From a virus (lineage: Duplodnaviria; Caudoviricetes), in IMG/VR virus record IMGVR_UViG_3300021976_000002, positions 1 through 55,163 of that record: DNA of 55,163 bases, one strand, 5' to 3'. Below, one piece after another: positions 4,597-50,780 of this stretch. The notes under the pieces were generated by a model. It had not been told where the DNA came from and searched no databases. It saw nothing but the letters and a program-made list of their open reading frames with translations. Position 1 is the first letter of the stretch; each line of letters begins with the position of its first letter. The position numbers were made by a program, and so were the translations under genes.

Positions 4597-7508
4597 TAGC
4601 GTCGACCTCCTCCCAAAGCCTTACCTGTTTGAATAACTCCGTCGATCAATTCGAATGCCACACGGCCGTCCTTAGTCACTAGCTGGACAGGTCGCCTATT
4701 CAACCCACGAGCCTCGTCGATCATGGTCCTCAGCATAGACTCGGACTGCGAGCTCAGTCCGATCGACTCAGGTCCGATCGTTCCTCCGTTAGCATAGCTT
4801 CCGGCAATCTGTCCTCGGTTGATAGCCTCGAGCAAAGACTTGTGACGCTTAGCCTGACTAGCTCGAACTACGTACTCGTCCCTAGACACCAGAGCCAAGA
4901 CATCGTCTGCTCGAGAGTGAGTACCATAGCGCACGCCTCCACCATAACGGAAGTCGTGTGCTACCATTCCACCGGCAGCATAGCCAGTGATCCATCCACC
5001 ACTAGCTCTCAGTCCTGGGTTGACGTACTGAGTACCATCCCAGATGCGGCCCGAGGTCCTGACGCTCACGGTAATAGTCGAGCTTCGGTTTCGTGCTGTA
5101 TTGTTCAGCTCACGCTCGGCAGCACCAATGCCAGTCACGTCGATGTTAGCATTGGCATTAACGTTGCGTCTGTCGAAGGCGGAGAGCTCTGTGTTGGCAG
5201 CTTCAACTTGAGCATCGGCAGCAACAGCACCAGGGGCAGACACAGTAGCTACATAGTCACCCGGAATGAGACCCAGAGTGTTAGCTAGAGTGTTAGCCTC
5301 TTCCTCGGAGTAGCCAGCAGCCACTGCGGCAGCTACGAATGATGCTCGGGCATTCTCCATAGCAACGGAAGCTTGATCAGCTGTGCCAGCATTCTCAAGA
5401 AGAGCTCCAGCAGTCTCAAGAGCCTGACTAGCCAAGTCGTTCAGGGCCTGTTCGTTCTCCCGACCCTTCTCGGTGTTGAATCCAATGGCTACACCAGTCT
5501 CATCGATCGCAGCTGTGGTGTCTGCCATCTGTGAAGCCAGGTCAAGTTGTGTCTGGCGAATGTCAATAGCCAGAAGACCAGCAGCCTGCATCTGGGCTAC
5601 AAGGTTAGCCAGCGCCTCAGCCTGTGTCTGGATGCCTTCAGTAGTAGCATCGAAGTCAGCACCGAGTTGAGCTTGCGCTGCGGCTGCTTCCTCTGTGGAG
5701 GTCGTAGTAATACCGAGCGCCCCGTTAGCAGCCTCAAGTGCGACTTGCTCTTCTTCGTACTTGCCCTTAGCCTCTTCGACGTGACCACTAAGCTCTGTGG
5801 TTCCACCGATGACTTCTTCAATGGCTGACAGCTTAGTACGAAGCGAAGCAGCGTGCTCGAGCTCGTCCTTACTAAGTGCACCAGGTCCTGCACCACCAGA
5901 GTACAACTCGTCCAGCTGTGCTTGGTACTCCTCCTGCTTGTCAACCAGCAACGCCATAGCATCCTGGTTACCAGCAGCAGCCTCAGTCACTGTGTCGAGA
6001 GCGACTCCAGCATCCTTGGCTTTGTCTGCCAACCCCTCTTGTGAGATCTGTGCCGCAAGAACTTGAGCAGCGTTCTCTCCGAAGGCACCAGAGTCAGCTT
6101 CAAGAGCAGCCGTGAAGTCTTCAACGATCTGTCGACCCTTAGCCTTCTCACTAAGGAAGGCGGACAGGATAATGCCAGCGCCAGCAATGGCTAGACCCAG
6201 TACACCACCAGCGATAGAGACAGCTCGCAACGACACACCCAAAGCCTGCGCTGCGATCCTAGCATCGTTGATGGCAACAGTAAGCCTACCCATTCCTGCA
6301 ACACCCAGTGCGACCAAGCCACCGCCACCGACTAGGGCCAGTGCGGCAGTTTGGATACCTGAGGGCAGGTCGTTAAAGCTATTTACTGCTTCTGTTACAT
6401 TCTGCACAACAGTCCGAAGGAAGTTGTTGCTACCCTCGGCCGAGTTGATGAACGCCGTCTCCAGGGCGCCGCCCAGAGCTTCGAGGTCACCCTTCAGGTT
6501 GTCCAGACGAAGAGCGGCCGTCTCAGCAGCGAAGCCTTGATCATCGACTGCGTTGGTCCACTTCTGGATACCACCCGTGCCCTGCTCCATGAGAATGTTA
6601 GCAGCACGAATAGCATCGCTACCGAAGATAGTAGCCAGCGCCTGGTCTCTCTGAGCCTGCGTAAGAGGTCCAAGCTTAGCCTGCAACTGACCAGCGAGGT
6701 CAGCCACACCGACAAAGCTACCCTCAGCATCGTACGCAGCAATGCCCAGGCGCTCCATTGTGTCTGCAGCTTCGCGGGACGGGTTCGCCATGCGTAGCAA
6801 CATCGTACGGAACGAAGTACCAGCATCGCTGCCCAACAGACCAGCAGCTGCGAACGCTGTCAGTGTGCCAACAGTCTCTTCAATGCTAATGCCGAACTGG
6901 TTCGACACCAGACCAGCCTGACGAAGAGCGAACGCCATGTCGGTCACATCACCCTGAGCCTTACCAGCACCAGCGGCTAGCAAGTCAGCAATGTGAGTAA
7001 CGTCCGAACCACTCAGACCGAACTGCGTCATAGCAGTCGCAGCGATCTCAGCAGCGTCGGCCACTTCCAAGTTACCAGCAGCAGCCAAGTCCAGCGAACC
7101 AGAAAGGCCACCGCCAAGGATGTCTGAAGTCGACACACCAGCCTTGGCTAGGTTCTCAATAGCTCCAGCTGCCTCAGTAGCAGAGAAGACAGTCGACTCG
7201 CCAGCATCGAGAGCGGCCTGGCGAAGCAAGCCCATCTCATCTGCAGAGGCATGCGTGGCTGCTTGAACAGCGGACATACCTTCATCGAAGTTGGCAAAGG
7301 CCCGAACAGCTAGACCAGCAGCACCAACCGCGGCGATACCAACAACGCCGAAGGCATTGCTGAGATCCCGAATGGATGCACTCGATCTACCTGACTGGGA
7401 CTCGACGTTCTGATTGAACGCGCCAACAGCGGAAGAGCCTTGACGGAGCCCTGCAGCTAGCCCGGAGACGTTAGCGACAAGCCGTACGGTTACGGTACGA
7501 TCCGCCAT
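4596..7508 (-). CDS. Tape measure protein
   Basis: 970 aa Ala/Gly-rich helical protein with a TP901-type TMP core (FSATEAA, GSDAGTSFRTML, IFGSDAIRAA). Lies after the tail chaperones. Confidence 0.95.
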   Translation of the reverse strand: MADRTVTVRLVANVSGLAAGLRQGSSAVGAFNQNVESQSGRSSASIRDLSNAFGVVGIAAVGAAGLAVRAFANFDEGMSAVQAATHASADEMGLLRQAALDAGESTVFSATEAAGAIENLAKAGVSTSDILGGGLSGSLDLAAAGNLEVADAAEIAATAMTQFGLSGSDVTHIADLLAAGAGKAQGDVTDMAFALRQAGLVSNQFGISIEETVGTLTAFAAAGLLGSDAGTSFRTMLLRMANPSREAADTMERLGIAAYDAEGSFVGVADLAGQLQAKLGPLTQAQRDQALATIFGSDAIRAANILMEQGTGGIQKWTNAVDDQGFAAETAALRLDNLKGDLEALGGALETAFINSAEGSNNFLRTVVQNVTEAVNSFNDLPSGIQTAALALVGGGGLVALGVAGMGRLTVAINDARIAAQALGVSLRAVSIAGGVLGLAIAGAGIILSAFLSEKAKGRQIVEDFTAALEADSGAFGENAAQVLAAQISQEGLADKAKDAGVALDTVTEAAAGNQDAMALLVDKQEEYQAQLDELYSGGAGPGALSKDELEHAASLRTKLSAIEEVIGGTTELSGHVEEAKGKYEEEQVALEAANGALGITTTSTEEAAAAQAQLGADFDATTEGIQTQAEALANLVAQMQAAGLLAIDIRQTQLDLASQMADTTAAIDETGVAIGFNTEKGRENEQALNDLASQALETAGALLENAGTADQASVAMENARASFVAAAVAAGYSEEEANTLANTLGLIPGDYVATVSAPGAVAADAQVEAANTELSAFDRRNVNANANIDVTGIGAAERELNNTARNRSSTITVSVRTSGRIWDGTQYVNPGLRASGGWITGYAAGGMVAHDFRYGGGVRYGTHSRADDVLALVSRDEYVVRASQAKRHKSLLEAINRGQIAGSYANGGTIGPESIGLSSQSESMLRTMIDEARGLNRRPVQLVTKDGRVAFELIDGVIQTGKALGGGRR

Positions 7509-7528
7509 GAAGCACCTCCTTAAACCCT

Positions 7529-7645
7529 AGCTCAGTTGAGCTCAGCGAGACTCGATATAGACTCAACGAGACTTCGGTTAGACTTGAGTTACCCCTAGCG
7601 CGTGTGGAGTTGTGAGGGCTCAAGTCTAACCGAAGTCTAACCGCG
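7529..7645. repeat. Intergenic element A: 20-bp perfect inverted repeat with phased AGACT/AGTCT repeats
   Basis: AGACTTCGGTTAGACTTGAG (7569-7588) and CTCAAGTCTAACCGAAGTCT (7619-7638). AGACT at 7548, 7559, 7569 and 7580. Confidence 0.85.
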
Positions 7646-8143
7646 TTGGTCTGGTTGCACGACCACAGGCTTTCGAGGTCTCGTTGGGCGTCTGCTTGGT
7701 ACCTTGGGCATCTTCCTGGATGTGAGGAAGTACTTGACCTTCTTGAAGCGTCGCTGTGTCTGTTCAAGCTTCTCGGCAGCCAGCCGTTCCGCTTCGCAGG
7801 CATGACAGACGATCGGGTTAGACACCTGGTAGTAGTACTTGGCATCTGGGTTGTTGGGGTCGGCATCTGGGTGACCTGACTCCGACAGAGGATGTCCGCA
7901 ATACGGATGCGTGTCGGCTTCGTCATCAAGGAGTGCGATGACAAAGTCTCGCTGGTCATCATCCCACTCGCTTTCTGTATCGGTCACCCACCGAAGTGGC
8001 CTTCCCTGATCATCCCATTCAACCACTGTGGTTACTTGCTTAGGCTCCCAGCCTGCGAACTTCTTCCGGCTGATTCCTAACTTAGTGGCTGCCTTGACCT
8101 CTGTCTTGATAACAGGGGCAGACCTTAGATCTGCCCCCGTGTA
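7637..8143 (-). CDS. Tail assembly chaperone, frameshift extension (G-T-like)
   Basis: Open in the -1 frame relative to 8125..8661 with no convincing own start. Contains WDDDQR and CGHP...CHAC motifs. Confidence 0.7.
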   Translation of the reverse strand, partial: YTGADLRSAPVIKTEVKAATKLGISRKKFAGWEPKQVTTVVEWDDQGRPLRWVTDTESEWDDDQRDFVIALLDDEADTHPYCGHPLSESGHPDADPNNPDAKYYYQVSNPIVCHACEAERLAAEKLEQTQRRFKKVKYFLTSRKMPKVPSRRPTRPRKPVVVQPDQRG

Positions 8144-28746: not shown

Positions 28747-28822
28747 GGACTGGTAGCTCAGAGGTCAGAGCAAGGGACTCTTAATCCCTGGGTCGTGGGT
28801 TCGACTCCCACTCAGTCCACCA
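28747..28822 (+). tRNA. tRNA-Lys(CUU)
   Basis: Canonical 76-nt cloverleaf: AGGGA-CTCTTAA-TCCCT anticodon arm, GTGGG-TTCGACT-CCCAC T-arm, encoded CCA. Confidence 0.95.
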
Positions 28823-32528: not shown

Positions 32529-33307
32529 GTCAGGAGAGGATCATGCTATTCTGGTACGCCGACCTTACCTACTACCGCCGGACTTGGTGCAGCAAGAAGA
32601 TCACCTGGTCGCACAGTCGTGGGGACTGCCGCTTCGAAAAGAACCACAGTGGTCCCTGCAAGCCTGGCGCGCGACGGGTGTGAGGAGAGGATCATGGTAT
32701 GTACTGAGTGTGAGACGGTGGAAGAAAGATCCCTGTGTCAAGAAGCTCCTGTACAGATCGTGACCAAGCCCTGTGCCAAGTGTGTAGTGATCTATAGACG
32801 GAAGGTAGGAGATGTTGTCATGGGACAATACATAGTGAGGCACCCAACACCTATTCCTATGCACGACTCCCCAGGCAAGCCTCCTGCGTCGCGTCTGAAT
32901 AGGACTGGCGAGTACCTTACTGATGCACAGGAGCGAAGGCTTCAAGACGTAACAGACAGAGCCAACGTCGAATTCAGATCGGCAATGGGAGCTATCGCCT
33001 CGACGGGCATTACAGTCGGCTGCCCACATCGCAATACAGACCCTGTAGTTAGTTTAGACATTGAGGTCGCTCGGCTATGCCTTGACTGTGGCAAGCAACT
33101 CGAGACAGCATACACCAGAGAGTTCGCCCAGCGACCTGACCCAGGAATCATTACTGACAATGGGCTTGATATACATGCACCGATCAAGATGGAAACAATC
33201 GGACCTGCAGAGGGCTGGGTCGTTTCTATCGTCGCATGTCTATTTGGTGTCGCACTGTTCTTCCTGATCTTCTGGCTACCACTGTGGCTATTCAACAATA
33301 GGTAGAT

Positions 33308-33414
33308 AGTCTATCTGATAGTCTAACATATCCCTATCCAACTACACGCAGCTAGGGGACTTCTCTTGTTAGACTCCAAGAGACTCGCAGAGACCTATAA
33401 GCAACGCTGAGCTC
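33308..33414. repeat. Intergenic element C: inverted and phased AGTCT/AGACT repeats
   Basis: AGTCT at 33308 and 33320; AGAC(T) at 33371, 33381 and 33391. Confidence 0.8.
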
Positions 33415-41165: not shown

Positions 41166-41270
41166 GGGTAAGGCCCACCGAGGTTACTCGCAAGGCTGTG
41201 ATCCGTTTCCCGGGGCGGTTAGCCTGTAGCGGTGCTCTTAGTGAAGCGTGGGCCTTACCCTTCTATTTAT
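41166..41270 (+). promoter_or_regulatory. Multi-branch RNA structure closed by a 13-bp stem, with a U-rich tail
   Basis: GGGTAAGGCCCAC (41166-41178) and GTGGGCCTTACCC (41248-41260), followed by TTCTATTTAT. Confidence 0.6.
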
Positions 41271-41281
41271 GGGGAGAGACA

Positions 41282-43480
41282 TTGACAGGCATTGGTTCGC
41301 CGGAGGAGAACAAGAGGCTCCGTGGAGTCTTCTTCGACTCCATTTTCGGCAAGCACAATGGCTGGGTATGTCTTGCCTTTCTACCCGCAGCTGACCGTAA
41401 GAAGTTCCGAGAAGAGTATTACCGTTACCCCGAAGAGACGTCTCAGATGCTGGACGCTGTTGAGGCTAACCTCTCGGGCAACAATATCTATTTCTGTCCT
41501 CAGCTCCTGAGTGAGAAGCGTAGACAAAAGCAATACGTTTCATCCACTCCGAACCTCTGGTCGGACTTGGACTTCTGTGAACCAGCTAACCTCCTTGTCG
41601 AGCCGACAGTAACTATAGAGTCCTCCCCAGATAGGTACCAAGCGTACTGGGTGCTCGACAAGGTCGTTGATGTAGACGATGCGGAAGATCTTAGCAAGCG
41701 CATTGCCTACAAGCATGCTGATCAGGGTGCGGATAGAACAGGCTGGGACCTTACCCAGCTATTGCGAGTTCCACTTACGTACAACTACAAGTACAACAAG
41801 CTAGCCCCTCCGGTAGTGAAGACTATCAACTTCAACCGGACACGATATAGAATAAGCGACTTCGAAGAATACCCCAAGGTCGAAGGGTATGCCTACGTCG
41901 ATGTTGAGATGCCTGACATATCAGAGTATCCCAACGCAGATGAATTGCTCGACAGACGTAGGCTTCAACTCAACCCCAGGGTCTGGCATTCGTATAGTGA
42001 AGAGCCTGCAGAGGACTGGAGCGGTGTCCTTTGGAACCTCCACCTGATGCTACTCGAAGCTGGCTACGATCGCAATGAGACATTCATCATTGTACGAGAA
42101 GCCAAGTGCAACAAGTATGTTAGAGATGGCAAGTCTGAAAAGCTCCTGTGGAAAGAAGTTGTTAGAGCCGATACTAAGAATGAGTTGAACCTAAGACTCA
42201 TTGCTGGCATTGGTGACAACGAAGATTCACAACCACTTCTTTCCGACAAGGAAAGGTCTAAGCTCGAACGAGACCCAGACACCTTCATTGAACGGTTCCA
42301 ACAGTGGGCGCGGTCCCTAGGTGATGCAGCACCACAGTACCACCAGGCCGGAGCTTTCGTGGCACTGTCATCTCTACTCGCAGGTGCGGTACGATTGCCA
42401 ACATCATTCGGTACGATCATCCCCAACCTGTGGTTTATGATCCTGGCAGACACAACTCTTACCAGGAAGTCGACTGCGATGGACATTGCTATCGACATGG
42501 TGATGGAGATCGACCCGGACTCAATGTTGGCTACTGATGGATCTCTAGAGGGTTTGTTGACAGCATTGTCAATGAGGCCCGGCAAGCCATCTATCTTCCT
42601 GCGAGACGAGTTCTCTGGACTGCTTGAGATGATCACTAAGAAGGACTACTACTCAGGCATGCCGGAGCTACTCACTAAGCTGTACGATGGTAAGATGCAG
42701 AAGAGGATCTTGCGCAAGGAGACCATTGAAGTCCGAGAGCCCATCCTGATCTTCTTCGCAGGTGGTATCAAGGACAAGATCACTGGACTGCTAACGCATG
42801 AGCACGTCAGCTCTGGCTTCATGCCTAGGTTCGTATTCATCACAGCTGAATCGGACATCAACAGGCTGAAGCCGATCGGCCCCCCAACGGCAACCACCAC
42901 AGGGTCTGGGGATGCCATCCGCAATGAGTTGATGGACATCTTCTCGTACTACCGTAAGCCAATACACATGACAGTTCAGAAGACAGCAGCCGTGCTAGAC
43001 GAGCCTATGAAGTTCGAGGCAGAGCTAACTGGGGATGCTTGGGTCAGGTACAACATCCTGGAATCGGATATGCTGTCCGCTGGGCTCGCTATGGAGAAGC
43101 CCGACATGATGACTCCTACCTACGACAGGCTCAGCAAGTCCATTCTCAAGGCTGCCATTCTTCTTTCGGCAGCACGGCAGCGTAGTGAGAAGTTGGTCGT
43201 GGAAGAGATCGATATCATTCGGGCTATTAGCTACGGAGAGCAATGGCGCACGCATGCCAATGAGGTCATGATCAATGTTGGGAAGGGTACCTACGAGAGG
43301 CAACTGGATACTATTGTCCGAGCCATTGAGAGGACACCAGGTGTTACTCGTTCGAAAATCATGCAGTGGTACCATCTCAGCTCGCGCTCTGCATCCGAAA
43401 TGTTCGACACGCTAGAGCAGCGCGGTGCTATCAAACGCATTCGCGCTGGCAGAACCGAAACGTTCCACTCACTACGCTAG
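41282..43480 (+). CDS. Primase-helicase (RepB/AEP-like primase plus DUF3987-like P-loop domain)
   Basis: LWSDLD, ESSPDRYQAYW, LLRVP; TRKST, LRDEF, LTKLYDG and SGFMPRF. TTG start after GGGGAG. Confidence 0.85.
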   Translation: MTGIGSPEENKRLRGVFFDSIFGKHNGWVCLAFLPAADRKKFREEYYRYPEETSQMLDAVEANLSGNNIYFCPQLLSEKRRQKQYVSSTPNLWSDLDFCEPANLLVEPTVTIESSPDRYQAYWVLDKVVDVDDAEDLSKRIAYKHADQGADRTGWDLTQLLRVPLTYNYKYNKLAPPVVKTINFNRTRYRISDFEEYPKVEGYAYVDVEMPDISEYPNADELLDRRRLQLNPRVWHSYSEEPAEDWSGVLWNLHLMLLEAGYDRNETFIIVREAKCNKYVRDGKSEKLLWKEVVRADTKNELNLRLIAGIGDNEDSQPLLSDKERSKLERDPDTFIERFQQWARSLGDAAPQYHQAGAFVALSSLLAGAVRLPTSFGTIIPNLWFMILADTTLTRKSTAMDIAIDMVMEIDPDSMLATDGSLEGLLTALSMRPGKPSIFLRDEFSGLLEMITKKDYYSGMPELLTKLYDGKMQKRILRKETIEVREPILIFFAGGIKDKITGLLTHEHVSSGFMPRFVFITAESDINRLKPIGPPTATTTGSGDAIRNELMDIFSYYRKPIHMTVQKTAAVLDEPMKFEAELTGDAWVRYNILESDMLSAGLAMEKPDMMTPTYDRLSKSILKAAILLSAARQRSEKLVVEEIDIIRAISYGEQWRTHANEVMINVGKGTYERQLDTIVRAIERTPGVTRSKIMQWYHLSSRSASEMFDTLEQRGAIKRIRAGRTETFHSLR

Positions 43481-43491
43481 GAGTATTCCCC

Positions 43492-44256
43492 ATGACTGTA
43501 CCTCAGAAGCTTGTCGTCGTTCTCTCTGGAGGACTGGACAGTACTACTCTCCTGTACGATGCGGTGGCTCAAGGCGCCGATGTTGTTCGGGCCGTCAGCT
43601 TCAACTACGGACAGAGGCACAAGAAGGAATTGGACTACGCTAAGCAGTCCGCAGAGAAGCTCAGCATCAAGCACACCGTTATCGACCTGTGGTCGTCGGG
43701 TCTGACTGAGGCGTTTTCCAATTCGGAAAGCTCGCTGGTCACGGACACCGATGTGCCTGAGGGACACTACGGCGAGGAGTCGATGAAGGCTACTGTCGTT
43801 CCCAACCGCAACATGATCATGCTCAGCATCGCAGGTGGCATTGCCGTAGCTGATGGTGCCAATGCCGTCGCTACTGGTGTGCATGCTGGCGACCACTTCA
43901 TTTACCCTGACTGCCGACCTGCATTCATTAGCACAGCCGCCTCGGCCTTGGCTCTAGGCAACGATGGCTTCGGCTCTCTCGACGTGGCTCCCATCTTCAC
44001 GCCGTACATCTTCCGGAGCAAGAACGATATTGCCTTCCGGGCTATCGAGTTGGACGTTCCTCTTCACGAGACTTGGTCTTGCTACAACGGACGAGAGAAC
44101 CATTGCGGGCGATGCGGCACTTGTGTCGAGCGCTTGGAGTCCATTGACTGGGCGGTCAACAAGTTCCTGGACGAGTACAATGTTGAGGTCGAGGATCACA
44201 CCATGTACGAGGACGACGCGTACTGGCGAGAGGCTCTCAAGAGGGAGACGGTCTAA
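43492..44256 (+). CDS. queC: 7-cyano-7-deazaguanine synthase
   Basis: LSGGLDST, FNYGQRH, VPNRN, YPDCR and TWSCY...HCGRCGTC motifs. Confidence 0.95.
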   Translation: MTVPQKLVVVLSGGLDSTTLLYDAVAQGADVVRAVSFNYGQRHKKELDYAKQSAEKLSIKHTVIDLWSSGLTEAFSNSESSLVTDTDVPEGHYGEESMKATVVPNRNMIMLSIAGGIAVADGANAVATGVHAGDHFIYPDCRPAFISTAASALALGNDGFGSLDVAPIFTPYIFRSKNDIAFRAIELDVPLHETWSCYNGRENHCGRCGTCVERLESIDWAVNKFLDEYNVEVEDHTMYEDDAYWREALKRETV

Positions 44257-44769
44257 ATGATCGTAGCTGTCAAGCACAACTTCGAGACGGCACATCGTCT
44301 ACCTTTCCTCGAAGGCAAGTGCCAGAGCATCCACGGTCACTCGTGGTGGGTGGAGTGGCAATTCGAGAAGCCAGTTGACTCCAACGGTCTGACTGTTGAG
44401 TACGGAACGATGAAGCGTCACCTCCGGGATTGGGTTGACACCTATCTCGACCACGGAACAATGCTTGGCATTAACGATCCTTTGTGGCAAGCATTCAAGG
44501 ATGATATTGGCTGTAAGCTCTTCACCTTCGGAGCCTCTAGCAAAGAGTTCATGAGCACTGCTGACCATAAGTGGCCTACAGTAGAAGCTGTCGCTCAGCT
44601 TCTAGCAAATGTAGGCGAAGGGCTTATTGGAGAAGCTCAGATCGTCAGAGTCGAAGTTCAAGAGACGCATGTCAACAAAGCTATCTGGACACCAACTGAG
44701 AACGACATCGAGTATCAGAGGAGAGTTCGTGAACCCGCTCAAGACACTTTCGGGCAACGATCGAAGTGA
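44257..44769 (+). CDS. queD: 6-carboxy-5,6,7,8-tetrahydropterin synthase
   Basis: FETAHRL, CQSIHGHSW, LDH, PTVE and VQET motifs. Confidence 0.93.
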   Translation: MIVAVKHNFETAHRLPFLEGKCQSIHGHSWWVEWQFEKPVDSNGLTVEYGTMKRHLRDWVDTYLDHGTMLGINDPLWQAFKDDIGCKLFTFGASSKEFMSTADHKWPTVEAVAQLLANVGEGLIGEAQIVRVEVQETHVNKAIWTPTENDIEYQRRVREPAQDTFGQRSK

Positions 44770-44920
44770 AGAGCCTGACTCGTTGTACCAACTGTACACG
44801 ATGCATGGGCTAAGGGACGGCAAGCATGTCTATGCTGGAACGGTTACTCGTAGCGACCGTGACCGACGCCGCGCAAAGAATCGGGTGGCTAAGAAGTCCA
44901 GGAAGAGGAACCGTGGCTGA
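44729..44920 (+). CDS. Small basic protein
   Basis: GAGGAG RBS before GTG; HVYAGTV...RRRAKNRVAKKSRKRNR. Confidence 0.5.
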   Translation: MNPLKTLSGNDRSEEPDSLYQLYTMHGLRDGKHVYAGTVTRSDRDRRRAKNRVAKKSRKRNRG

Positions 44921-45290
44921 CCCATACCTCGAGGGTAAGGTCTCCGACTCTATCTCTGGAGGCCTCGGAGTGACTGACACCGAGTACACTCTCGATGCCA
45001 ATGATCCGTTCGAGTCGAAGCTGATCGAGATGGTCAAGCTCAATCGAATGAAGCGAGCTGACTACGCTGGCGACGAAGATCCTTGGCAGAACTTTGTTGA
45101 CAGTGCTATTCAAGTCAACGATACACCAGGCAAGTCTGTCGAGACGTTGATCGCTACCAAGCAGGCTCGACTTCGGCAGCTTCTGTTCACTGGTCGCGCA
45201 CCCAAGAATGAAGCCGTGCGCGACACAGTCCTCGACCGTGCAGTGTATTCTGTCATTGCCCTTTCGATCTACGACCGAGGAGACTACTGA
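44913..45290 (+). CDS. Nucleotide-modification-associated domain 1 (Nmad1/DUF1599-like) protein
   Basis: KRADYA...NF...KQARL...EAVRDTVLDRAVY pattern. Confidence 0.7.
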   Translation: MADPYLEGKVSDSISGGLGVTDTEYTLDANDPFESKLIEMVKLNRMKRADYAGDEDPWQNFVDSAIQVNDTPGKSVETLIATKQARLRQLLFTGRAPKNEAVRDTVLDRAVYSVIALSIYDRGDY

Positions 45291-45535
45291 TGAGTGAGCC
45301 CAACGAACCGCTTGACCCCGAAGAGGGTGTGACTCCAGAAGGGGTTATCACCGACAATGACTTCGCATTCGGATCTAACGGAATAACTCTAGCTCCTCTC
45401 ATTCCAGTCCGTATCGAGACTAAGCAGCAGGCCTATCGAGCCGGCATCTGGATCAAGCTTATGGGTGAGTTTCTTCCTGACGAGCCAGTCGCCTCGACCT
45501 GGGAAGAGATCCAGAACGCGATTGAGGGGACCTGA
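45290..45535 (+). CDS. Acidic hypothetical protein
   Basis: Translationally coupled on both sides. Confidence 0.6.
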   Translation: MSEPNEPLDPEEGVTPEGVITDNDFAFGSNGITLAPLIPVRIETKQQAYRAGIWIKLMGEFLPDEPVASTWEEIQNAIEGT

Positions 45536-46242
45536 TGGTTGTACGAGTGAGTGAGGTCTACCTGAGTGTGCAGGGTGAAGGGCCTCGAGCTGGTCAGCGT
45601 ACGGTGTTCGTCCGATTCGGTGGATGCAACCTTCGTTGCCCCGGATGGCCCTGTGACACTCAGCACGCGATTGATCCGGCTCTTTATCGTAACGAGTGGA
45701 TCAAGACTGAGCCTGCAGACCTCGTTGAACAGATCGACAAGGTAGCAGAGAAGACCCTGAGTACTGCGATCTGCTTCACGGGCGGTGAGCCATTCCTTCA
45801 GCACCACCCCGACCTGGCTGAGGTCATGGATGGCTTGATGGTTCGAGGCTACGGAACGTATGAGTGCTTCAGCAATGGGACTATCTTGTACCCTGAATGG
45901 GCTACTCGTGAGTTGTCCTTTATCATGGACTGGAAGCTCCCAGGCTCTGGAGAGAACCATCTCAACCCAGTACGCCTGAAGAACTTGTCGAACCTTAAGG
46001 TCAAGGATGCTGTCAAGTTCGTTATCAAGGATCGAAATGACTTCGAGGTAGCCAAGGAACTGTACCTTAGGTACATCGAACGGATCCCGAATGCGTGGCG
46101 CCCTCGTACCTACTACGGTGTGGTGTGGGGAGCTATGGAGAACTCCGAACTCATCGAATGGGTTCTGGACGCCAAGCTTCCATGGTGGATAAATGTGCAA
46201 GTGCATAATTATATTTGGTCCAGGGATCAGAGAGGCATTTGA
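45535..46242 (+). CDS. queE: 7-carboxy-7-deazaguanine synthase (radical SAM)
   Basis: SVQGEG, FVRFGGCNLRC.GWPCDT, TGGEPF, KLPGSG and QVH motifs. Confidence 0.95.
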   Translation: MVVRVSEVYLSVQGEGPRAGQRTVFVRFGGCNLRCPGWPCDTQHAIDPALYRNEWIKTEPADLVEQIDKVAEKTLSTAICFTGGEPFLQHHPDLAEVMDGLMVRGYGTYECFSNGTILYPEWATRELSFIMDWKLPGSGENHLNPVRLKNLSNLKVKDAVKFVIKDRNDFEVAKELYLRYIERIPNAWRPRTYYGVVWGAMENSELIEWVLDAKLPWWINVQVHNYIWSRDQRGI

Positions 46243-46243
46243 T

Positions 46244-46822
46244 ATGCTCGAGCAGGACGCTTTGTTCGGTACGTACACTCCTGAGGGGCATGCACTCGAA
46301 ATCTTTTCCTCTTTGGAAGCTTGGGAAAGAACGAACGAGAACCACAGGGAGGATACACCAGTACGTTTCATCAATGCCCTCCGCCAGCTGACTGAACGGG
46401 AGGAGTTCAACTTCACTACGTTCGACAACGATGGCATCGACGAGATGATCACGCTTGGGCCAATTCCCTTCTACACGTTGTGTGCCCATCATGTGGTTCC
46501 CTTCTACGGCAACGCCTGGGTTGGCTACGTGCCAGATGGACGCATCGCCGGCCTGAGCAAGTTCGCTCGCGCTGTCAAGTATGTGGCGAAGGGCTTCTGG
46601 GTTCAGGAGGAGCTCACTCGAGAGCTGGCCGACTTCCTCGAGCACAAGCTGGAGCCCAAGGGCGTAGCCATCGTGATGAAGGCTGAGCACATGTGCATGG
46701 CAATGCGAGGCGTGCAGCAGCCAGGTGTGATCACTACGACATCGACCATGCGGGGTGTGTTCGCAGACCACTCTCGCACAGCGAAGGCAGAGTTCCTTCA
46801 CAATGTGAATGGAGCACACTGA
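46244..46822 (+). CDS. folE: GTP cyclohydrolase I
   Basis: DTPVR, LCAHHVVPF, GLSKFAR, VQE and AEHMCMAMRGV motifs. Confidence 0.95.
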   Translation: MLEQDALFGTYTPEGHALEIFSSLEAWERTNENHREDTPVRFINALRQLTEREEFNFTTFDNDGIDEMITLGPIPFYTLCAHHVVPFYGNAWVGYVPDGRIAGLSKFARAVKYVAKGFWVQEELTRELADFLEHKLEPKGVAIVMKAEHMCMAMRGVQQPGVITTTSTMRGVFADHSRTAKAEFLHNVNGAH

Positions 46823-47229
46823 TGAGCTACGCAGCTGACAGCAATGGCGAACGTGTTTACTTCGAACGGGAACTAAGTGTAACAGACTCCCGCGAACAGC
46901 TTTATCACCTGGCCAAGCAGTGCCTCGAGGACAGTGAACGTTGGTTCGGAGACAGTGGTAAGGTGCATGACCTTCCTCATCATGGACTAGGCCTTGGAGG
47001 TGAGACAGGCGAAGTCCTAGAGATCATTAAGAAGATCGATCGCGGCTCTTTAGATCTCAGCGATCCGAACGTTGAAGAAGCATTGGCTTTGGAACTGACG
47101 GACGTTCTAATCTATGTTCTGAACCTCGCAGCCATTCTTAACATTGACCTGCAACAAACTTACAACCAGAAGCGTAGCATCAATGAAGACCGCTTCATGA
47201 GACAACGACGGGAACGGGAGAGTCGATGA
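46822..47229 (+). CDS. MazG-like nucleotide pyrophosphohydrolase
   Basis: GLGGETGEVLEIIKK...LELTDVLIY: paired ExxE/ExxD motifs. Confidence 0.85.
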   Translation: MSYAADSNGERVYFERELSVTDSREQLYHLAKQCLEDSERWFGDSGKVHDLPHHGLGLGGETGEVLEIIKKIDRGSLDLSDPNVEEALALELTDVLIYVLNLAAILNIDLQQTYNQKRSINEDRFMRQRRERESR

Positions 47230-47540
47230 CTGACGCTAAGGTTCGAATCAGTGGCTCCAAGGTCTGGTTCGATCAGAAGGAAGTTACCAAGGAAGACATC
47301 GACAGGTTCGGTGACGGCTTCGAGACTCTCCGGCACATCCGGTACGTTAAGGGTGCAGAGGAGTATGGCGACCTGACCTTCCTCGACAACGACATCATCC
47401 GAATGATGGCCGAGGAGCTTGCTGACACCGCCAACTACTGCAAGATGCAATTCATCAAGCTCATGCTCCTGAAGCGTGAACTCGACAAGCAGTACCCGAG
47501 CGACCAGGACTTCAACGGGACTAAGAGGGGATGGGAGTAG
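47226..47540 (+). CDS. All-alpha NTP-pyrophosphatase-like protein
   Basis: R..KG..EYG...EELADTANY pattern. Confidence 0.55.
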   Translation: MTDAKVRISGSKVWFDQKEVTKEDIDRFGDGFETLRHIRYVKGAEEYGDLTFLDNDIIRMMAEELADTANYCKMQFIKLMLLKRELDKQYPSDQDFNGTKRGWE

Positions 47541-47542
47541 AC

Positions 47543-48349
47543 ATGAAGCTGGCATTGATTCCACCAATCAGTCTTCGACATACTGCTGTGCAGAGCAGGT
47601 ACCATCTCGTCCTGCCTCAACTCCTCGAGGCGCGCGACGAGTACTTCGCCATGTACTACACCATTGCCAAAGAGATCCCAGGCAACTTCATTATCCTGGA
47701 CAATGGTGAGGCTGAGGGTGCTCAGGTTGACTTCGAGACTCTTATCTCCTACGCAGCCGAACTTGATGCTGACGAGGTTGTCCTCCCCGATGTGATGAAG
47801 GATGCACAGAGAACCATTCACCGCATTGAAGAGTTCCTACAGTGGTACGACAACTCTGAATGGGGAGGAGGACGCCGCCGCAACTTTATGTTCGTTGCCC
47901 AGGGGACAACCTACGAGGAAGTCCAGAGCATGATGGGTGAGGTGATGGAAGACAAGGAGATGTCCAAGAACATCTCTGCTGTTGGTATCCCCCGCCATCT
48001 GGTTGAGACATTAAATGACAACCAGGCTCGTGTTGAATTGGCCTACTACTTCCACGAGCGGTACAGTAACAGCGACTACGCACCTGTGGCGATCCACTTC
48101 CTCGGAGCCTCGCCTGTGTACGTTGAAGAGGTGGGCGACCTTCAATCCATTGGCATTGGCCGAGGCATGGACACGTCGCTCCCTTACAATGCAACATACC
48201 ACAGTGTGGAACTTGGAGGGCTTACGCCCGATGTTGTGAGTCGGCCGGATGGGTACTTCGACCTTGACCACCAGGCCTTCAATAGTCAACTGCTCGAGAA
48301 GAACATTCACACCATGATGGACTGGGCCCATGGTCGAACTAACTCCTAG
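47543..48349 (+). CDS. TGT/DpdA-like guanine transglycosylase (TIM barrel)
   Basis: Ordered motifs ILDNG, VLPDV, VAQG, VGIP, IHFLG and MDTS parallel the TGT catalytic core. Lies in the que cluster. Confidence 0.7.
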   Translation: MKLALIPPISLRHTAVQSRYHLVLPQLLEARDEYFAMYYTIAKEIPGNFIILDNGEAEGAQVDFETLISYAAELDADEVVLPDVMKDAQRTIHRIEEFLQWYDNSEWGGGRRRNFMFVAQGTTYEEVQSMMGEVMEDKEMSKNISAVGIPRHLVETLNDNQARVELAYYFHERYSNSDYAPVAIHFLGASPVYVEEVGDLQSIGIGRGMDTSLPYNATYHSVELGGLTPDVVSRPDGYFDLDHQAFNSQLLEKNIHTMMDWAHGRTNS

Positions 48350-50780
48350 GAATGTTACGCGCAAGCATCCGAAGGCGCGGTGCGAAGAGTGCCCCCTGTA
48401 CGAAGTTGGTAAGTTCGTACCGAGTGTTGGTCCTGCCAATGCTGAACTTGCCTTCGTCGGAGAAGCTCCAGGTGTCAAGGAGACTCGCCAGGGTATTCCC
48501 TTCACTGGTCCCTCTGGCAAGCTTCTCGACAAGGTCATGGAGCACCATGGCTTCAATAGAGAAGATGTCTTCCTGAGCAATGCTTGTCTCTGCCGACCAC
48601 CAGACAATGCGACACCAACCAAGTCAGCCATCTTCGCCTGCCGTGATAGGCTTGTCGCTGAACTAGAACAACACAACGTCAAGACTGTGGTGGCGTTGGG
48701 TAACTCGGCTGCTGAGTCGTTGCTCGGTCAGTCAGGTGTCACCAAGCTTCGAGTTGGTCCTGGCAAGCTATCGAAGTATGCCAAGGACGTTCTGGTCATC
48801 CCCACTCTACACCCTGCAGCCTGCCTTCGTCAGGGTGACATGTTCCCCTATCTCGTCACTGACGTTGGAAAGGTAAACGCTACCCATGAAGAGTGGACTG
48901 AGCCTGAGTACAGAGTCCTTGACACTACAAGGGACGCTCTCGATGCCTGTAAAGAATTGGCACGTGTACAGGGACCATTTGTTATCGACATTGAAGTTGA
49001 CATTGAAAAGGACACCGCTTACGATCATCCAAACCACTACGGTATGCTGTGCCTTGGAATCGCTTATGCCCCAAAGCGGGCAGTTGTTTTCTCTGAAGGT
49101 GTCATGGGCGAACGAGACGTTCGAGATGCGCTTGGAGGTCTTCTCCGCAACAAGAAACTTATTGCGCAGAACGGCAAGTTCGATCTAGCGGGACTCTACC
49201 CTGTCCTAGGTCCTCTCGAGCTTTGGTTCGACACCATGCTAGCTTCCTACGTCTTCGATGAACGCCCAGGCATTCATGCGCTGAAGCACATGGCTGTAGA
49301 ATACCTAGGCGCACCCCAGTACGATGACGAGGTGAAGAAGTATGTGGGACCCGGCGACGGTTACGGTGTCATTCCACGAGACGTCCTCTACAAGTACAAT
49401 GCGCTCGATGTTGCCTGTACGTATTCGCTGTACGAGATGTTCAGCAAGCGGCTCGATCTCGATCAAGCGGCGACGCCGGAAGGTCAACGATCGCTACGAG
49501 ATGTACACGACTTCCTCGTGGCAGCATCCAATCAACTCATGTACGTTGAGCTCAATGGCATTGGAGTTGACCGCGAGTATCTAGACACGCTCACGGATGA
49601 GTACCTTGATCGTCTGGATAACATCGAGCAGGACATCAACAAGATCATTGAGGGCCGTGACTACGACAAGCGTGGCGGCATCAACCCCCGATCGCCAATG
49701 CAGGTCAAGCAGTACTTGTCGGACAAGGGTATCATCACAGAGACTACTAACGAAGATGCTCTGAACATGATCAAGGATAGACTTGCAGGGATGATCCTCG
49801 ACCATGACTCAGGAACCAAGAAGCTTGGTGCCTCAGAAAACGTAGCCAGGGAGGTGTTGTCTTTTGTGCAGACGCTGCTCACGCATCGTCGCGAGGCTAA
49901 GCTCTACGGAACGTACGTCAAGGGTATCCGTAAGCGTATGTCCAGGGGAAGAGTGTTCCCCACCTTCTTGCTCCACGGTACTACGACCGGACGGCTTGCT
50001 TGCCGTAACCCTAACATGCAAAACATTCCACGTGAGTCGACTATTCGACGTCTCTTCGTACCATCAAAGCCTGATCACGTCTTCGTGGAGACCGACTATA
50101 GTCAGGCTGAGTTGCGGGTGCTCAGTTACCTTGCAGGCGACACTTACTTCCGTGACATCTTCAACGGAGGAGAGCGTGACCTCTTTGATGAGCTGACTCC
50201 CATTCTGTATCCGGAGTTGCAGAGTAAGGAAGCCTGCCCTCCCGAGCTGTGGAAAGAGATCCGGATTCGAGTCAAGGCTTACGTGTACGGTCTCTCCTAC
50301 GGACGCTCTGAGTTCTCTATTGCCGACGAGTACAAGATCAGTGTTAAGGAAGCCCGCAAGGGTATGTATGCCTTCTTCGATGTCATCCCAGAGATCGTTA
50401 CCTTCAGGAACGAGACGAAGAAGAAGGTGCTAGCCGGAGAGGACCTCATCACTCCTTGGGGTCGACACCGTCGCTACAGTCTCATCACGAAGGAGAACAA
50501 GGACTCCATTCTTCGAGAGGCTCTAGCCTTCCTCCCTCAGAGTACTTCCTCGGACATGTGCTTGCAGGCTATGGGATGGTCTCGTCGTGACCTCAAGGGC
50601 ATCGGATGGGTTCGTAACATCGTCCATGACTCTGTACTCGTTGAGTGTCACGAAGAGGATCAGGATGAAGTCAAGCAGATCGTAGAGACGCACATGATCG
50701 AATCTGCCAAGACGATCGTCGGTGACTACGTCAAGTTCGCCGTTGAGTCGAAGACTGGAAAGAGCTGGGCCAAGACATGA
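48330..50780 (+). CDS. Family A DNA polymerase with N-terminal family-4 uracil-DNA glycosylase domain
   Basis: UDG: CEECPL, VGEAPG, CRP, HPA. Exonuclease: DIE, NGKFD, YNALD. Polymerase: TTTGRL, DYSQAELR, K...YG..YG, VHD. Confidence 0.93.
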   Translation: MVELTPRNVTRKHPKARCEECPLYEVGKFVPSVGPANAELAFVGEAPGVKETRQGIPFTGPSGKLLDKVMEHHGFNREDVFLSNACLCRPPDNATPTKSAIFACRDRLVAELEQHNVKTVVALGNSAAESLLGQSGVTKLRVGPGKLSKYAKDVLVIPTLHPAACLRQGDMFPYLVTDVGKVNATHEEWTEPEYRVLDTTRDALDACKELARVQGPFVIDIEVDIEKDTAYDHPNHYGMLCLGIAYAPKRAVVFSEGVMGERDVRDALGGLLRNKKLIAQNGKFDLAGLYPVLGPLELWFDTMLASYVFDERPGIHALKHMAVEYLGAPQYDDEVKKYVGPGDGYGVIPRDVLYKYNALDVACTYSLYEMFSKRLDLDQAATPEGQRSLRDVHDFLVAASNQLMYVELNGIGVDREYLDTLTDEYLDRLDNIEQDINKIIEGRDYDKRGGINPRSPMQVKQYLSDKGIITETTNEDALNMIKDRLAGMILDHDSGTKKLGASENVAREVLSFVQTLLTHRREAKLYGTYVKGIRKRMSRGRVFPTFLLHGTTTGRLACRNPNMQNIPRESTIRRLFVPSKPDHVFVETDYSQAELRVLSYLAGDTYFRDIFNGGERDLFDELTPILYPELQSKEACPPELWKEIRIRVKAYVYGLSYGRSEFSIADEYKISVKEARKGMYAFFDVIPEIVTFRNETKKKVLAGEDLITPWGRHRRYSLITKENKDSILREALAFLPQSTSSDMCLQAMGWSRRDLKGIGWVRNIVHDSVLVECHEEDQDEVKQIVETHMIESAKTIVGDYVKFAVESKTGKSWAKT

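Follow-up and report, generated by a model that had tools for sequence, protein, structure and literature searches.

The window analysed here is the whole of an IMG/VR virus record (IMGVR_UViG_3300021976_000002; 55,163 bp), a complete virus with direct terminal repeats whose structural genes occupy the minus strand of the first ~23 kb and whose genes for early functions and replication follow on the plus strand from ~24 kb onward. On the plus strand, positions 43492-50780 form a tightly packed block that carries, in order, QueC, QueD, a 154-residue open reading frame (ORF), an 81-residue ORF, QueE, FolE, a MazG-type pyrophosphatase, a conserved 104-residue protein termed p104, a protein of the DpdA3 subfamily and a family A DNA polymerase (PolA). 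The subject of this account is the DpdA3 protein, which has the fold of tRNA-guanine transglycosylase (TGT), and the possibility that it belongs to a module that exchanges the base of free deoxyguanine nucleotides before replication. Family matches (Pfam, PHROG, NCBIfam) place the genes, FolE, QueD, QueE and QueC included, where a first-pass annotation of the sequence had put them. FolE overlaps MazG by 4 nt, as MazG does p104, and the overlap of the polymerase with the TGT-like gene claimed in that annotation is 20 nt (DpdA3 stop, 48349; PolA start, 48330). The block had also been called one operon. Its spacing and orientation fit this description, but promoter and terminator scans gave counts at the level of shuffled sequence or chance, so that operon status is inferred from spacing and orientation, the only features that bear on it. 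The phage collection contains no Megablast match to the block as a whole.

The protein of interest (268 residues; 47543..48349, plus strand, like all genes of the block) is without a match in Pfam, PHROG or NCBIfam; the TGT family PF01702 in particular is not matched by the protein in hmmscan at E <= 10, nor in any of six frames at the same threshold. Relatives are nevertheless numerous: a word-indexed search yielded 80, and an exhaustive search yielded 1,636 cluster representatives at E <= 1e-3. A profile made from an alignment of 42 relatives of the window protein (A1) matches ORF 32558-33325 of phage phi19:2 with an E value of 2.5e-29 over model positions 2-251 of 255. This ORF is 100% identical to CGPG_00065 of Cellulophaga phage phiST, the protein that defines the DpdA3 subfamily (Cui, Hutinet et al., Nucleic Acids Research 2023; PMC10516641) and for which the same paper gives an HHpred probability of 98.8% to the TGT family. 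Direct tblastn with the window protein at E <= 10 did not find the phi19:2/phiST prototype. Profile A1 also matches CPT_0056 of Campylobacter phage CP220 (8.5e-20) and a protein of Chryseobacterium phage MA9V-3 (5.9e-35), and a broader profile, A6, built with several of the DpdA3 homologues included, matches a gene annotated DpdA in the Flavobacterium Immutovirus 13-6C (5.6e-49).

Structure prediction leads to the same family. The AlphaFold2 model computed from the 42-sequence alignment is a confident (beta/alpha)8 barrel (pLDDT 94.9), and the 49 best PDB matches that Foldseek lists are without exception TGT-family chains (TGT, QTRT1/QTRT2; best E 2.9e-6). VIA-align gives a Z score of 16.7 to the archaeosine TGT 1iq8 (235 residues aligned, root-mean-square deviation 3.9) and of ~16 to bacterial TGT, and near-full-length matches among the BFVD viral models include phiST M4SLA5 (E 7.7e-15, TM 0.79/0.82). 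On profile homology and predicted fold, then, the 268-residue protein belongs to the DpdA3 subfamily and is a minimal TGT-fold barrel. The description of it as a divergent TGT-like enzyme holds for the fold; comparison by profile and structure places it in DpdA3, and because it is homologous to the published prototype it is not a new kind of enzyme.

Residues D53, N54, D83, R163, H185, G188 and D210 are invariant in 204 family sequences, R151, R207 and R234 are invariant too, and D53, D83 and D210 are invariant across all six DpdA3 lineages. In the model these three Asp lie at or beside the C-terminal ends of strands 3, 4 and 8, D210 being within strand 8. They occur in the same order as D95, D130 and D256 of bacterial DpdA (bDpdA), with spacings of 30 and 127 residues as against 35 and 126; in bDpdA these residues are described as general acid/base, base recognition residue and nucleophile (PMC10164549). 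The bacterial DpdA/DpdB system and TGT (PF01702) share with the window protein a TIM barrel (Z ~16), three Asp in order and a Q/H-G motif after strand 5, but the window protein has neither a PF01702 match nor a DpdB (ParB-like) partner. The zinc site is also missing. A CXCX2CX22H zinc site is described as conserved in DpdA and TGT (PMC10164549), and its residues (C302, C304, C307, H333) are shared by all 10 E. coli-like TGTs aligned here. The window protein contains no Cys at all, as first noted from its 268-residue translation, and no column of the 204-sequence alignment holds Cys in more than 37% of members, from which it follows that the site is absent from the family as a whole. With lengths of ~255-270 residues, DpdA3 proteins are essentially bare barrels.

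When profile A1 was compared with PDB sequences there was no TGT match; weak matches to the guanylate-kinase-like domains of DLG/PSD-95 (E 0.0035-0.6, profile positions 41-142) were read as probably due to chance, since the folds differ, curious as they are for a protein linked to guanine nucleotides. The DpdA3 homologue in the Bacillus phage BSTP records MW354677, MW354678 and MW354669 is labelled 'polynucleotide kinase', 'NADR_SALTY trifunctional NAD biosynthesis/regulator protein' and 'putative integrase/recombinase', which are likely misannotations of a TGT-fold protein.

The company that DpdA3 keeps is the second line of evidence. In five of the six DpdA3 lineages, DpdA3 has a small P-loop gene of nucleotide-kinase type next to it or close by. 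It is found immediately 5' of DpdA3 in BSP7 and Youna2 (PHROG 761, 'thymidylate kinase', 9.5e-16 and 1.5e-9), in phiST (AAA_18, 1e-6) and in MA9V-3 (AAA_18, 1.5e-7), with relatives in loci L179-L182; the P-loop neighbour in the BSTP10 record is annotated as a putative thymidylate kinase. It lies immediately 3' in CP220 (CPT_0057; AAA_28 1.7e-12, PHROG 2107 1.2e-51) and, as an annotated thymidylate kinase homologous to CPT_0057 (7.9e-18), 0.7 kb 3' in Immutovirus. The kinase-like neighbours occupy positions 7342-7905 of locus L002, 7453-8004 of L001, 4002-4499 of L089, 6528-6998 of L090, 8494-9036 of L177 and 5026-5550 of L193. Genes resembling nucleoside triphosphate (NTP) pyrophosphatases occur in four of the six lineages: MazG in those of the window and phiST, a dCTP-deaminase-like protein of the DCD fold in MA9V-3 and in L180-L182, and, by the depositor's annotation alone, a pyrophosphatase in Immutovirus. 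Two DpdA3 clusters also carry a phosphoribosyltransferase beside FolE (L180, 2032-2550, Pfam Pribosyltran 7.6e-20; Immutovirus, L193, 1388-1783, by annotation). The two proteins are related (E 2.5e-5) and could recycle the released guanine or make a deazaguanine ribonucleotide. The text of PMC10516641 describes CGPG_00066 as having no homologues in other deazaguanine phages, and the recurrence of a kinase neighbour at the level of the DpdA3 family may be unreported, although the supplementary tables of PMC10516641 and PMC6884629 may already cover the Bacillus phages or the neighbours.

A natural comparison is offered by NCTC12673, a sister phage that contains deoxyinosine (dI): it lacks both DpdA3 and the CPT_0057 kinase and retains a homologue of CPT_0055. 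The latter, a fusion of HD and AAA_33 P-loop domains (L177, 6543-7574), is 53% identical in NCTC12673 (L190, 3339-4379), where it carries the annotation 'putative poly A polymerase' and has ribonucleotide reductase genes as neighbours and an RNA ligase gene at a distance of 1.3 kb. Its retention in a phage with neither DpdA3 nor CPT_0057 suggests that CPT_0055 is unrelated to deazaguanine. A role for it as a combined dGTPase and kinase was considered and rejected, because it matches polynucleotide-kinase families and is conserved in the dI phage. It presumably resembles an end-healing HD-kinase, and is more likely to be an end-healing enzyme than part of guanine replacement.

The block also carries the means to supply a base. 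By their family matches FolE, QueD, QueE and QueC make up the four-enzyme route from GTP to preQ0 (7-cyano-7-deazaguanine). FolE (GTP cyclohydrolase I; 46193..46822) matches Pfam GTP_cyclohydroI (3.9e-47) and PHROG 2197 (3.4e-49); the Pfam match begins at residue 46, and the true start may be the Met codon at ~46244. QueD (6-carboxytetrahydropterin synthase; 44257..44769) matches Pfam PTPS (8.1e-20) and PHROG 2389 (1.1e-32). QueE (7-carboxy-7-deazaguanine synthase, of the radical S-adenosylmethionine [SAM] type; 45535..46242) matches PHROG 2076 (5e-34), Pfam Fer4_12 and Radical_SAM, and, under that model's cut-off, TIGR03963 (9.1e-37). QueC (7-cyano-7-deazaguanine synthase; 43492..44256, 254 residues) matches Pfam QueC (5.3e-57), PHROG 1550 (1.2e-67) and TIGR00364 (188.2 bits, cut-off 150.3). 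In a phiST-like IMG/VR contig (L179), a flavodoxin gene (1317-1835; Pfam 6.4e-20) lies between QueE and FolE, and plausibly serves as reductant for the radical-SAM QueE.

QueC is a protein of a single domain and thus not a Gat-QueC. A six-frame search of the record found no QueF, and a Pfam scan of 54 plus-strand ORFs (10 larger and 44 smaller, the latter at E <= 1e-3) found no member of the QueF, ArcS (DUF5591), amidotransferase or nucleotide-kinase families, no six-frame search with an ArcS model having been made. The earlier statement that QueF, ArcS and Gat-QueC are lacking is borne out to this extent, and the expected base is therefore preQ0, or 7-amido-7-deazaguanine (ADG) should QueC stop early; the DNA probably contains dPreQ0 or dADG at very high replacement. 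The chemically characterized DpdA3 phages end elsewhere. According to PMC10516641, phiST, without QueC and with DpdL, makes dDG and dCDG, and Immutovirus, with QueF and DpdN, makes fdPreQ1; the window phage has QueC and none of QueF, DpdL and DpdN, for which dPreQ0 or dADG would be expected. QueC without QueF is a combination outside the three chemically tested DpdA3 phages.

Between FolE and DpdA3 lie two further genes, of which one is a firm family member. The MazG-type protein, an all-alpha nucleoside triphosphate pyrophosphohydrolase of 136 residues (46819..47229), matches Pfam MazG (6.6e-6; 26.8 bits, cut-off 22) and PHROG 229 (1.2e-12). Residues E62, G64, E65, K71, K72, E92 and D95 are invariant in 54 family members, so that the EExxE/ExxD metal-binding motifs are kept; tblastn with MazG against 50,697 phage records gave no match. 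A profile of the family matches the PDB entries 2q73 (2.5e-12) and dCTP pyrophosphatase 1 (DCTPP1, 8.6e-12), and the dGTP-specific MazZ at 3.8e-3. p104 (47226..47540; 104 residues), which is translationally coupled to MazG and DpdA3, is a conserved helical hairpin of no assigned family: its model consists of two long helices (pLDDT 81), and R39, G43, Y47, G48, E64, D67, N70 and Y71 are near-invariant. No Pfam family is shared by 48 family members and no PHROG matches; Foldseek found no PDB match, the best Z score across VIA was 4.6, all hits being generic coiled coils, Atlas returned unnamed viral clusters only, and the best match of a p104 profile to PDB sequences is a weak one to AF_0060 (E 0.42). 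An alignment with the MazG profile by hhalign (probability 7%, E 0.0048, 27 columns) falls on an EELxDxxxY motif. Prediction of a complex of DpdA3, MazG and p104 scored 0.00, which is no evidence either way.

The 154-residue ORF (44826..45290) was taken at first for an Nmad1-like pyrophosphatase. It matches PHROG 1485 (function unknown; 8.1e-7) and, beneath the cut-off of 25, Pfam DUF1599 (PF07659; E 0.012, 16.4 bits); in a language-model look-up in Atlas, 27 of the 30 nearest clusters include DUF1599 proteins, which make up 20-29% of their members (score 0.95). The sequence stored in Atlas begins at residue 30, and the true start is likely near 44913. The ORF is weakly Nmad1-like rather than a member of the family. 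Of the three NTP-pyrophosphatase-like genes counted in the first-pass annotation, MazG is solid, the 154-residue ORF is sub-threshold and p104 resembles MazG at the level of a motif. The 81-residue ORF between the Nmad1-like gene and QueE (45290..45535) has no Pfam, PHROG or NCBIfam match and no homologue in any of 82 related loci, and may be lineage-specific or not a gene.

The polymerase (48330..50780) is of family A (Pfam DNA_pol_A 2.6e-57), with a 3'-5' exonuclease domain (DNA_pol_A_exo1, 6.3e-12) and an N-terminal family-4 uracil-DNA glycosylase (UDG) domain (Pfam UDG 5.4e-31; TIGR00758 131.9 bits, cut-off 125.3). The UDG domain (48330-48900) of this replicative enzyme looks intact, with a CxxC and other Cys. 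Gene order around DpdA3 was surveyed in 82 loci, comprising Youna2, BSP7 and 80 IMG/VR loci that the family profile retrieved; narrower locus queries added 4 and 5 loci. A PolA homologue lies 3' of DpdA3 in 79 of the 82, the remaining three ending at DpdA3. Homologues of FolE are present in 73, MazG in 66, QueC in 58, p104 in 57, QueE and QueD in 55 each, the primase (5' of the Que genes) in 52 and the Nmad1-like protein in 14; these counts are lower bounds, because many loci are incomplete, and do not represent independent events, because all belong to one lineage of ~50-kb phages.

The layout extends beyond this lineage. phiST (Cbastvirus) and Immutovirus, whose DpdA3 proteins share the zinc-less minimal barrel, have the order FolE, MazG-type pyrophosphatase, small ORF or ORFs, DpdA3 and, further on, DNA polymerase. 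They differ from the window in having a P-loop kinase-like gene by DpdA3 and, in Immutovirus, a phosphoribosyltransferase, neither of which the window has; it has instead p104 and the Nmad1-like gene. The phiST polymerase is of the PolIII-alpha type, that of the window of family A. CP220 (Firehammervirus), which replaces dG completely by dADG and whose DpdA3 homologue keeps the three invariant Asp, is a departure: its DpdA3 gene is placed between tail genes, flanked by the HD and P-loop fusion and the thymidylate-kinase-like gene, far from any polymerase and from the Que genes. Conversely, DpdA1 clusters (Queuovirinae, Iggyvirus) have the same architecture and preQ0 pathway as the window, running from a helicase through QueE, QueC, QueD and FolE to DpdA, a small ORF and polymerase genes, although DpdA1 is longer (306-312 residues by annotation) and belongs to the zinc-bearing DpdA group. 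The order FolE, DpdA, hypothetical protein, clamp and polymerase is found in two DpdA1 phages, Pseudomonas phage Iggy and the CAjan-like Seuratvirus VogelGryff, and modification in Iggy is reported as partial and motif-specific (~16.5% of G, as dPreQ0, at a GA motif). Adjacency to a polymerase is therefore not diagnostic, and the DpdA3/PolA overlap speaks for a shared replication-module architecture rather than for replicative incorporation; as an argument for substitution at the level of the nucleotide pool, for which it had been offered, it fails.

A further parallel had been drawn with the dZ phages. Their PurZ, MazZ, DatZ and DpoZ system resembles the window in that a base-synthesis pathway is encoded alongside a pyrophosphatase of the MazG family and a family A polymerase. 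The window does not encode a dZ system: the phage_DpoZ_1 model yields 48.5 bits where its cut-off is 500, MazZ is a distant relative, and no PurZ or DatZ family turned up among 64 ORFs scanned against Pfam.

The reading that is put forward, with a probability of about one half, is that a DpdA3-type substitution module in the replication operon acts before replication, exchanging guanine on free deoxyguanine nucleotides. A more specific version, proposed tentatively and at somewhat less than even odds, holds that DpdA3 is not a DNA transglycosylase and would be the first TGT-fold enzyme to exchange the base of free dGMP or dGTP, which with preQ0 would yield the 7-deaza analogue and guanine, in a pre-replicative pathway with a pyrophosphatase and a dedicated or host kinase. 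MazG would convert a dNTP, presumably dGTP, to the monophosphate and would at the same time lower the competing pool. Using the double-displacement chemistry of TGT, DpdA3 would then replace guanine by preQ0, either on dGMP or on dGTP itself, and a nucleotide kinase, which other DpdA3 lineages would themselves encode, would re-phosphorylate the product. Because the window phage has no kinase, it would need the host guanylate and nucleoside-diphosphate kinases, or a DpdA3 that acts on dGTP itself. The dZ phages, too, are not known to have a dedicated kinase and use those of the host. Incorporation of the analogue by the co-transcribed PolA would result in near-complete replacement of G and in protection from restriction. 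The other well-studied complete replacements in phage DNA, those by 5-hydroxymethylcytosine (hmC), 5-hydroxymethyluracil (hmU), deoxyuridine (dU) and dZ, are pre-replicative.

Published observations bear on this reading. The three DpdA3 phages tested (CP220, phiST and immuto_2-6A) are completely modified, as compared with <= ~30% in the other DpdA subfamilies, DpdA3 is inactive in an E. coli model that works for DpdA1 and DpdA2, and ADG nucleoside is cited as occurring in the cytoplasm of CP220-infected cells (all as given in PMC10516641). A modified-dGTP route for Campylobacter phages was mentioned in 2019 (PMC6884629), so that the nucleotide-level idea is a revival and not a first proposal. 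In the literature searched no later paper on the mechanism of DpdA3 was found, PMC10516641 being the only paper on DpdA3 found. Exchange on free nucleotides is favoured because replacement is complete, the barrel is bare and zinc-less, kinases and pyrophosphatases lie in the neighbourhood and the ADG nucleoside is present in infected cytoplasm. The substitution at nucleotide level first suggested for the window draws on kinase-like neighbours in five of six lineages, pyrophosphatases in four of six, the zinc-less barrel and the joint absence in NCTC12673, and is weakened by the lack of a kinase in the window's own lineage.

The principal alternative is that exchange follows replication: PolA would make DNA with ordinary G, and DpdA3, perhaps near the replisome, would flip out each G and insert preQ0. 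This is a credible contender, held at a little under an even chance, as is its corollary that MazG, p104 and the Nmad1-like protein have ancillary roles (for instance in pool sanitation or regulation) and that the P-loop neighbours are ATPase helpers like DpdB. Several points weigh on its side and against exchange on free nucleotides. All characterized members of the TGT superfamily act on polynucleotides, and DpdA3 keeps the three invariant Asp; DpdA1 and bDpdA are demonstrated DNA base exchangers (PMC6884629, PMC10164549). Post-replicative exchange was also proposed by those who described DpdA3, whose argument was that every such phage has a DpdA (PMC10516641), and the FolE-DpdA-(x)-polymerase layout recurs in DpdA1 phages, whose DNA is modified post-replicatively. 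By analogy with bDpdA, which requires the ATPase partner DpdB and ATP (PMC10164549), the P-loop protein beside DpdA3 might serve as an ATPase cofactor rather than as a kinase.

The genomic evidence contributes to the same side of the balance. As the first-pass annotation had noted, no nucleotide kinase is recognized in the window genome, where the sole AAA_18 signal in the Pfam scans is the P-loop of an AAA_24 ATPase, and kinase queries against the 80 IMG/VR loci of its clade gave 0 matches. An ORF with a Walker A motif lies 5' of DpdA3 in 3 of 68 loci, two of them from Bacillus/Weizmannia phages; the third is a coincidental match within FolE. What is called a kinase or pyrophosphatase here takes its label from a family name or a depositor's annotation and has a putative function, and the pairs in CP220 and Immutovirus, being each other's closest relatives, count as one transfer unit and not as two events. 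The DpdA1 control is small: in the clusters of Iggy and VogelGryff no kinase, MazG or other pyrophosphatase, or p104 is annotated, by annotation alone and with n=2. Three clade members (L065, L069, L070) have FolE directly 5' of DpdA3, with neither MazG nor p104 beside it. The closest solved relatives of MazG are dCTP-type pyrophosphatases, MazZ being distant, so that similarity lends no support to a dGTP preference, and the pyrophosphatases cannot serve as the argument for dGTP depletion that had been made of them. Finally, the equivalence of D53, D83 and D210 to TGT catalytic residues is inferred from order and spacing rather than from superposition. Comparison by hhalign of the 204-sequence DpdA3 profile with an 81-sequence gammaproteobacterial TGT profile is non-significant (probability 0.08%), as is the low-stringency alignment that pairs PD with FDEC, AQG with IQG and HFLGAS with YLMGVG; profile A1 against a single E. 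coli TGT gave 0.1%, and the TGT set is too narrow, its relatives being at least 83% identical in the homologue search and at least 64% in the contig scan.

Post-replicative exchange has difficulties of its own. It requires that every G of the duplex be exchanged by a bare barrel that lacks the zinc subdomain and the insertions called conserved in PMC10164549, and by an enzyme that PMC10516641 reports to be inactive in an E. coli system fit for DpdA1 and DpdA2. It also leaves unexplained why NTP pyrophosphatases and P-loop genes of kinase type (AAA_18, AAA_28, thymidylate-kinase PHROGs) recur beside DpdA3. The strong acidity of the window DpdA3 (pI 4.71; 41 D+E against 20 K+R; family median pI 5.4) points the same way, as weak evidence, since the median of the TGT set is 6.2. 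The other alternative, that no DNA is modified and that the module boosts the supply of preQ0 or queuosine for host tRNA, the TGT-fold protein acting on tRNA or in salvage, was raised for 48 phages then thought to lack DpdA (PMC6884629) and is now very improbable, as those phages were later found to carry DpdA3 or DpdA4 and the three tested DpdA3 phages have fully modified DNA (PMC10516641), DpdA3 is part of the replication operon at 79 of the 82 loci, and it lacks the tRNA-binding zinc and C-terminal parts of TGT.

The surroundings of the block are those of a replication region. Directly 5' of QueC is a primase/helicase-like replication gene (41198..43480, plus strand; Pfam DUF3987 9.1e-14, RepB_primase 6e-5), and the genes 5' of the block encode, by Pfam, an SNF2 helicase, a PD-(D/E)XK nuclease, the AAA_24 ATPase, a DUF669 protein and this primase/DUF3987 protein. 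Most ORFs of the early region have no family match; the 44 small plus-strand ORFs (23.9-37.9 kb and 50.8-55.1 kb) include two HNH_3 endonucleases and one HTH_31 protein. A single tRNA gene, for tRNA-Lys(CTT), is located at 28747-28822.

The window prompts a concrete hypothesis about DpdA3 and the route to complete replacement of guanine by a 7-deazaguanine in phage DNA. It also adds a large uncultured DpdA3 clade, as measured by the cluster representatives and by the 80 IMG/VR loci that share synteny. The same module is present in cultured phages of Bacillus subtilis and Weizmannia (BSP7, BSTP5/8/10/12, Youna2), which puts an inexpensive test of the hypothesis within reach; a text search of the Youna2 paper found no mention of queuosine genes, restriction or DNA modification. 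If exchange does take place on free nucleotides, it would open a new enzymatic way to 7-deaza-dGTP analogues, add a new activity to those of the TGT fold and explain why DpdA3 phages replace 100% of their guanine when phages with other DpdA subfamilies replace so much less.

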